From Candidatus Pacearchaeota archaeon (GTDB taxonomy: Archaea > Nanobdellota > Nanobdellia > Pacearchaeales > UBA284): a DNA stretch of 64,000 nt. Under the pieces are notes generated by a model. The model searched no databases and was not told the DNA's origin. It saw nothing but the letters and a program-made list of their open reading frames with translations. Of this stretch, positions 1,766 to 1,797 are shown piece after piece (position 1 is the stretch's first letter; the number at the start of each line of letters is the position of its first letter). Location of the stretch: contig CP061211.1 in assembly GCA_026016245.1 (NCBI GenBank), positions 424,879 through 488,878 of the forward strand. Direction: 5' to 3'. Made by a program: the position numbers and the translations under genes.

Positions 1766-1797
1766 CTTGAGGGCTTGCTTAGGCTGGGTTTTCTAAA
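1766..1797. repeat. 3'-end repeat element copy A (near-identical to 4109..4140)
   Basis: gagggcttgcttaggctgggttttct vs gagggctcgcttaggttgggtttttg; spans last codons and stop of a minus-strand gene. Confidence 0.4.

Follow-up and report, generated by a model that had tools for sequence, protein, structure and literature searches.

Two minus-strand genes of a Pacearchaeota archaeon, a Ham1-like gene and a nucleotidyltransferase gene, end in almost the same sequence, and the question that this locus raises is whether the shared end is an element in its own right or the trace of a single event in the history of the genome. We analysed a stretch of 64,000 nt (64 kb, hereafter the window) that is AT-rich, with a mean GC content of 31%. 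An earlier note, written from the letters of the window, had described a near-identical element that covers the last codons, the stop codon and about 13 nt of 3' flank of both genes and is followed by a T-rich tract on the coding strand. It had proposed a shared element, be it a member of a terminator or 3'-UTR family, a recombination site or a cassette boundary. The description is borne out by our analysis, but the interpretation only in part, and we consider it likely (probability about 0.7) that a single local duplication within this Pacearchaeota lineage gave rise to the pair.

Two copies of one gene end

The minus-strand 27-nt core AAAACCCARCCTAAGCRAGCCCTCRAG lies at 1766-1792 and at 4118-4144, with 24/27 identical positions. 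The second range given in the earlier note (4109-4140) was a few bases off. On the plus strand the exact 24-mers read GAGGGCTTGCTTAGGCTGGGTTTT (1769-1792) and GAGGGCTCGCTTAGGTTGGGTTTT (4121-4144), within the regions ...taaaaataaataaCTTGAGGGCTTGCTTAGGCTGGGTTTTCT... (copy 1, 1753-1796) and ...taaaaatttattgCTCGAGGGCTCGCTTAGGTTGGGTTTTTG... (copy 2, 4105-4146). Local alignment of 1753-1792 with 4105-4144 extends the similarity to 33/40 positions, a divergence of 7/40 (17.5%), and includes a common ATTTTTA on the coding strand. The copies stand in direct orientation on the same strand, 2,352 bp apart, and the longest exact word common to both is 8 nt. They close the minus-strand open reading frames 1779-2372 and 4131-4424 in the same reading frame, N-P-A in Ham1 and N-P-T in the nucleotidyltransferase, followed by the stop codon TAA (1779-1781 and 4131-4133, respectively) and 13 nt of flank within each core. 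These GC-rich 13 nt are 11/13 identical, and the similarity between the copies continues to 26 nt beyond the stop codon. In both copies the coding strand has a T5 tract 16-22 nt past the stop, and the other strand has a run of T4-5. All three mismatches of the core are A/G transitions, and since the homology reaches past the stop codon and the core differs by transitions only, the similarity is one of DNA and not of protein convergence, as the earlier note had held. Copy 1 occupies nearly all of the 31-nt spacer to the convergent PEP-utilizer gene (stop 1745-1747), and copy 2 is located upstream of the DUF1284 gene. Coordinates of all features are collected in Table 1.

Table 1. Features of the repeat-bounded locus in the 64-kb window
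Feature	Coordinates	Strand	Description
PEP-utilizer gene (phosphohistidine swivel domain)	507-1747	+	Convergent flank; frameshifted near 1541-1547
Repeat copy 1	1753-1792 (core 1766-1792)	-	Last three Ham1 codons N-P-A, TAA, 13-nt GC-rich trailer, ATTTTTA
Ham1 gene	1779-2372	-	Ham1/RdgB-family non-canonical NTP pyrophosphatase, 197 aa; PF01725, E 3.8e-21
Rest of inter-repeat block	2471-4077		orf62, orf273, convergent spacer, DUF1284 gene
orf62	2471-2659	+	No family matches
orf273	2696-3517	+	Distant squalene/phytoene-synthase-like protein; conserved Asp-rich motifs
GC-rich convergent spacer	3518-3618		Between orf273 and DUF1284 gene
DUF1284 gene	3619-4077	-
Repeat copy 2	4105-4144 (core 4118-4144)	-	Native nucleotidyltransferase 3' end: K-N-P-T, TAA, trailer, ATTTTTA
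Nucleotidyltransferase gene	4131-4843	-	About 238 aa; frameshifted; C-terminus ...DKISKNPT as in ortholog P0121

A pair of this kind might arise by chance or through faulty assembly, and the standard BLAST E-value, which is based on a uniform composition model, is only 0.026. However, the composition-aware expectation over all pairs in the window is 0.0016-0.003, no shuffle out of 100 contained two matches to the motif, and both copies share the reading frame and the position relative to the stop codon. After two tRNA-Leu genes, the 3'-end pair is the best repeat pair in the window outside low-complexity sequence. Two separate Logan contigs of this organism (L003 and L020; run DRR463595) contain the repeat junctions in identical form, which makes assembly chimerism unlikely, and the shared 8-nt word is too short to mislead an assembler. 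Chance or artefact is thus effectively refuted and keeps next to no probability. The two Logan contigs end at 3375-3393 with a 19-nt overlap inside orf273, away from the repeats, which may reflect strain variation or a drop in coverage. Long A/G-rich low-complexity coding repeats (15740-17120 and 21650-21840, encoding Lys/Glu-rich tails) dominate the output of the repeat finder, and a 55-nt match of 85% complementarity links 17066-17120 to 50475-50529.

Polarity of the two copies

Comparison with orthologous genes shows the polarity of the pair, with the nucleotidyltransferase end as the native and the Ham1 end as the derived one. The nucleotidyltransferase, for which nine homologs are detectable, takes its name from the source annotation of these homologs and from a weak PF18765 match of its N-terminal part. 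The closest ortholog, P0121 (contig L024, 68% amino acid identity), ends in ...LTDKISKNPT and the protein of the window in ...LVDKISKNPT. The DNA of the ortholog has AAAAACCCCACCTAAGCTCGCC at its 3' end and then diverges (GATAAAATATCTAAAAACCCCACCTAAGCTCGCCAGAAAAAATTC in L024 versus GATAAAATATCCAAAAACCCAACCTAAGCGAGCCCTCGAGCAAT in the window). It therefore has the coding part of the motif and 7 nt of the flank (TAAGCnnGCC), in a contig that stops 27 nt past the nucleotidyltransferase stop. Presence of the motif in this ortholog indicates that it is native to the nucleotidyltransferase gene; more distant homologs have other C-terminal ends. We considered a special conservation of this 3' end and rejected it based on the identity profile against L024: the sliding identity of 87% at the end lies inside the range of 60-90% found along the whole gene and does not stand out from it, indicating plain orthology and no specially conserved element.

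Homologs of Ham1 number in the hundreds, and the 3' ends of five orthologs were examined, L022 (77% identity), L023 (74%) and L031, L032 and L033 (63-65%). The motif is absent from 5/5, which have differing ends and unrelated trailers. The two closest orthologs end in ...YLEKQS and ...HVKNSR, and the Ham1 protein of the window follows the orthologs through ...YLE, with its final NPA coming from the repeat. Likewise, the DNA can be aligned with L022 through ...TATTT(A/G)GAAAA, after which the similarity to the ortholog is lost, and this breakpoint after GAAAA is precisely the start of the similarity to the nucleotidyltransferase end. Since the five Ham1 orthologs lack the motif and the nucleotidyltransferase ortholog carries it, the Ham1 end is the derived one. 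Among 20 homologs, the Ham1 tail past the conserved Trp188 is variable in both sequence and length, and replacement of such a C-terminal tail is plausible. A counter-point is that the last 12 nt of the L022 Ham1 gene still match at 7/12 positions, given which part of the Ham1 end could be ancestral.

Compared with L024, the nucleotidyltransferase gene lacks 1 nt in the GGGAAAAAA run near 4655 (4650-4660), which breaks its reading frame, leaving open reading frames of 64 and 97 aa, and the frame 4131-4424 that is closed by copy 2 is its C-terminal part. The PEP-utilizer gene is frameshifted as well: its N-terminal part of 346 aa stops at a TAA at 1545-1547 and the swivel domain is encoded in another frame (1544-1744), while the ortholog P0131 (54% identity) is intact with 402 aa. 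The premature stop of the PEP-utilizer gene is also present in the Logan contig. Thus, the block between the repeats has a frameshifted gene on either side, and these two genes could be pseudogenes or contain homopolymer sequencing errors.

Recurrence, regulation and mobility

A shared regulatory or recombination element might be expected in further copies, as the earlier note had suggested in calling for a consensus search. The window contains no third copy with up to 8/27 mismatches, and 14-16-nt sub-motifs with 3-4 mismatches occur in it at or near the numbers expected from shuffles. We also searched collections of genomes, viral contigs (IMG/VR) and JGI metagenome contigs with degenerate forms of the consensus. 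The 185,579 species-representative genomes gave two matches (a Desulfarculaceae MAG and an Acidobacteriaceae MAG), IMG/VR gave one, and the JGI metagenome contigs gave 15, all in contigs of 40-70% GC and without the surrounding context. The matches L001, L002 and L004 (in the Desulfarculaceae, Acidobacteriaceae and IMG/VR contigs) were judged as chance by their source and by the lack of a match to the longer consensus, and none of the 18 matches in the three collections is a credible copy. Within the 64 kb and the three collections the pair is hence a one-off and does not belong to a dispersed repeat or a regulatory motif family; there are two copies only, an outcome that the earlier note had itself named as speaking against a shared element, and their similarity held on exact alignment.

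It is nevertheless conceivable that the motif is a functional cis-element that selection keeps similar, such as a terminator or 3'-UTR module, a bidirectional terminator or a site for a protein or small RNA, co-regulating two genes of nucleotide metabolism. Near identity over the GC-rich 13 nt past the stop is suggestive in a genome of 31% GC, the oligo-T runs on both strands of both copies would fit a bidirectional signal, and the first bases after the stop are kept in the nucleotidyltransferase ortholog. However, the window contains some 65 further gene ends without the motif, it is missing from all five Ham1 orthologs, and the nucleotidyltransferase gene is as conserved elsewhere as at its 3' end. 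RNA secondary-structure prediction, a check proposed in the earlier note, was run on 91 nt around each copy for both strands and gave no significant energy (z-scores between -1.1 and +0.7) and no fold in common, and Rfam returned nothing credible over 1500-5000. A bacterial-type terminator-like match on the plus strand of copy 2 was dismissed, as it depends on G-U pairs and is not called at copy 1. The T-tract was also set aside as independent evidence for a terminator because it is part of the duplicated segment and the window as a whole shows no excess of T5 within 40 nt after stops (10/67 open reading frames, 15%, versus a background of 23%). We therefore regard a selected cis-element as rather improbable. 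Elsewhere in the window, 44571-44687 on the plus strand matches the Rfam tRNA model over 117 nt with 59 bits, is not called by ARAGORN and is probably an intron-containing archaeal tRNA, being too long for a tRNA without an intron; a stand-alone 5S rRNA is present, too, and both features mark the window as archaeal.

The genes between the repeats bear on the question of mobility. We found no recombinase, transposase, integrase or phage-type gene in or beside the block in searches of Pfam, NCBIfam and PHROGs. We also considered orf273 and orf62 as hidden recombinases and rejected this, as neither matches a mobility family and the orf273 profile favours squalene/phytoene synthases. orf273 itself has no Pfam, NCBIfam or PHROG match; its family is small, with 27 representatives at E <=1e-3. 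Two motifs in the alignment of this family contain invariant Asp residues, a profile of 22 homologs matches the squalene/phytoene synthases HpnC and CrtM weakly (E about 1e-3), and one family member matches PF00494. The single-sequence AlphaFold model has a pLDDT of 38 and is unusable. From these profile matches orf273 most likely encodes an enzyme of the isoprenoid-synthase fold and not a mobility protein, possibly an isoprenoid-synthase-like enzyme that is so far uncharacterised in DPANN archaea. The 11-mer GCTCGAGGGCT at 3419-3429 on the plus strand, inside orf273, equals the outer end of copy 2 (4118-4128); the chance of this, estimated by hand from base composition, is about 0.002, which is borderline given all sub-words of the motif, and the match is probably a coincidence. 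The spacer that follows orf273 contains a possible hairpin and then TTTT, a fold that is not significant (z = -1.0), with no Rfam match.

No relative examined has the arrangement of genes that surrounds Ham1, the nucleotidyltransferase and the PEP-utilizer in the window. The nearest relatives of Ham1 and the nucleotidyltransferase (68-77% amino acid identity) are without conserved synteny, and the nucleotidyltransferase relatives lie in unrelated gene contexts. The neighbours of Ham1 are wholly different in the five relatives, with no homologs of orf62, orf273 or DUF1284 nearby. In L030, which carries the PEP-utilizer ortholog (54% identity), the upstream order of LMWPc and PEP-utilizer is kept and a different convergent gene lies downstream. 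Thus, the 2.35-kb block is not conserved as a unit, and among the contigs of Ham1, nucleotidyltransferase and PEP-utilizer relatives we found neither an empty site nor this gene order together with a native end of Ham1. In some relatives (L022, 5846-12375; L024, 94-1865; L023, 123-1193) members of the Ham1 and nucleotidyltransferase families adjoin further genes of nucleotide house-cleaning (MazG, HD, NUDIX and another NTP_transf_2 protein), and the L022 neighbourhood also contains genes for a tyrosine integrase and an HNH nuclease and a gene like lambda Ea47. This context suggests a variable, possibly mobile neighbourhood of nucleotide-metabolism genes.

Such observations leave some room for a reading in which the repeats are attL/attR-like cores that bound a 2.35-kb cassette (Ham1, orf62, orf273 and DUF1284), integrated into the nucleotidyltransferase 3' end by site-specific or Campbell-type recombination and mobilised in trans. 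Some elements integrate into gene 3' ends and reconstitute them. Similarly, direct repeats of 27-40 nt flank a discrete block here and one of them rebuilds the 3' end of the presumed target gene, both flanking genes are frameshifted, and the fluid gene order together with the integrase, HNH and phage-like genes around the L022 Ham1 ortholog points in the same direction. In contrast to known archaeal and bacterial attL/attR repeats, however, this block comes without an integrase or other mobile-element genes, without a conserved cargo unit and without any other occurrence of the site in the collections scanned, and the distal repeat is the end of a second gene. The Ham1 orthologs are never linked to homologs of the other cargo genes, and the element would already have had to carry the last nucleotidyltransferase codons fused in frame to its Ham1 gene. 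The repeats also have no palindromic or inverted-repeat architecture. They resemble REP/MITE-like repeats and integron attC sites as short conserved sequences at gene boundaries, but differ from them in having two copies only, in lacking a hairpin or inverted repeats and in belonging to no family in the collections scanned; an attC cassette boundary was rejected for want of a palindrome and an integrase. Taken together, we consider recombination of the att type unlikely. The more specific idea that the repeats are recombination cores of a small integrase-less cassette that moves in trans in a DPANN archaeon is highly doubtful. If true, it would give archaea a counterpart to the mobility of gene cassettes, with a site that doubles as a portable stop and terminator for the cargo gene, and cassette-type mobility in DPANN archaea would be indicated only if the full genome showed more copies or excision products.

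A probable local duplication of a gene 3' end

A single duplication of the nucleotidyltransferase end remains the reading that we favour. As there are two copies only, with the motif present in the nucleotidyltransferase ortholog and absent from the Ham1 orthologs, the pair is best understood as a one-off copy of a gene end. The source would have been about 40 nt of the nucleotidyltransferase 3' end, comprising 14 nt of coding sequence, TAA, the GC-rich 13 nt and, beyond these, an AT-rich part that includes the T5. A second direct copy would have been placed at the Ham1 3' end, 2,352 bp downstream, and joined in frame at an A-run (GAAAA followed by CCC). Ham1 would thereby have gained its NPA tail and a stop codon, together with an oligo-T tract that directly adjoins the convergent PEP-utilizer stop. 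As far as can be told from sequence alone, the copy may act as a plain gene end, with three tolerated C-terminal residues, a stop and an oligo-U terminator. The divergence of 7/40 between the copies implies that the event was old or the copying imprecise.

Three routes are compatible with the data. A microhomology-mediated template switch could have copied the 40 nt or so from a nearby template, a block containing Ham1 could have been inserted beside the nucleotidyltransferase gene and its target duplicated in the process, or the nucleotidyltransferase gene could have undergone a segmental duplication, after which a deletion at microhomologies joined Ham1 to what was left of the extra copy. 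Under all three routes it would be a coincidence that the derived Ham1 protein has 197 aa, the same length as both of its closest orthologs, which speaks somewhat against a replaced end. Long-distance template switching at microhomologies has been documented in bacteria (PMC1428787). The locus resembles duplications by template switching or illegitimate recombination in that direct copies lie a few kb apart, the junction is a 4-nt A-run and one copy is anchored by orthology while the other is absent from orthologs. It differs in that the event is read from present-day sequence and in that the copied piece supplies an in-frame stop and a terminator. Concerning the latter, archaeal termination depends on a U-tract, together with aCPSF1 (PMC8716108), and the U-tract of both copies may serve this purpose. 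The T5 in both copies is similar to that of archaeal intrinsic (oligo-U/aCPSF1) terminators, for which no hairpin is needed. Unlike these, the locus has a GC-rich 13-mer that lies outside any known terminator signal, and termination at either copy is a prediction.

A short GC-rich repeat at two gene ends of an AT-rich genome is thus no evidence of a regulatory or mobile element unless its copies recur. Read as a local duplication, the locus would be an example of a gene that has taken its last codons, its stop codon and its terminator from a neighbour in a reduced archaeal genome, and of little beyond that.
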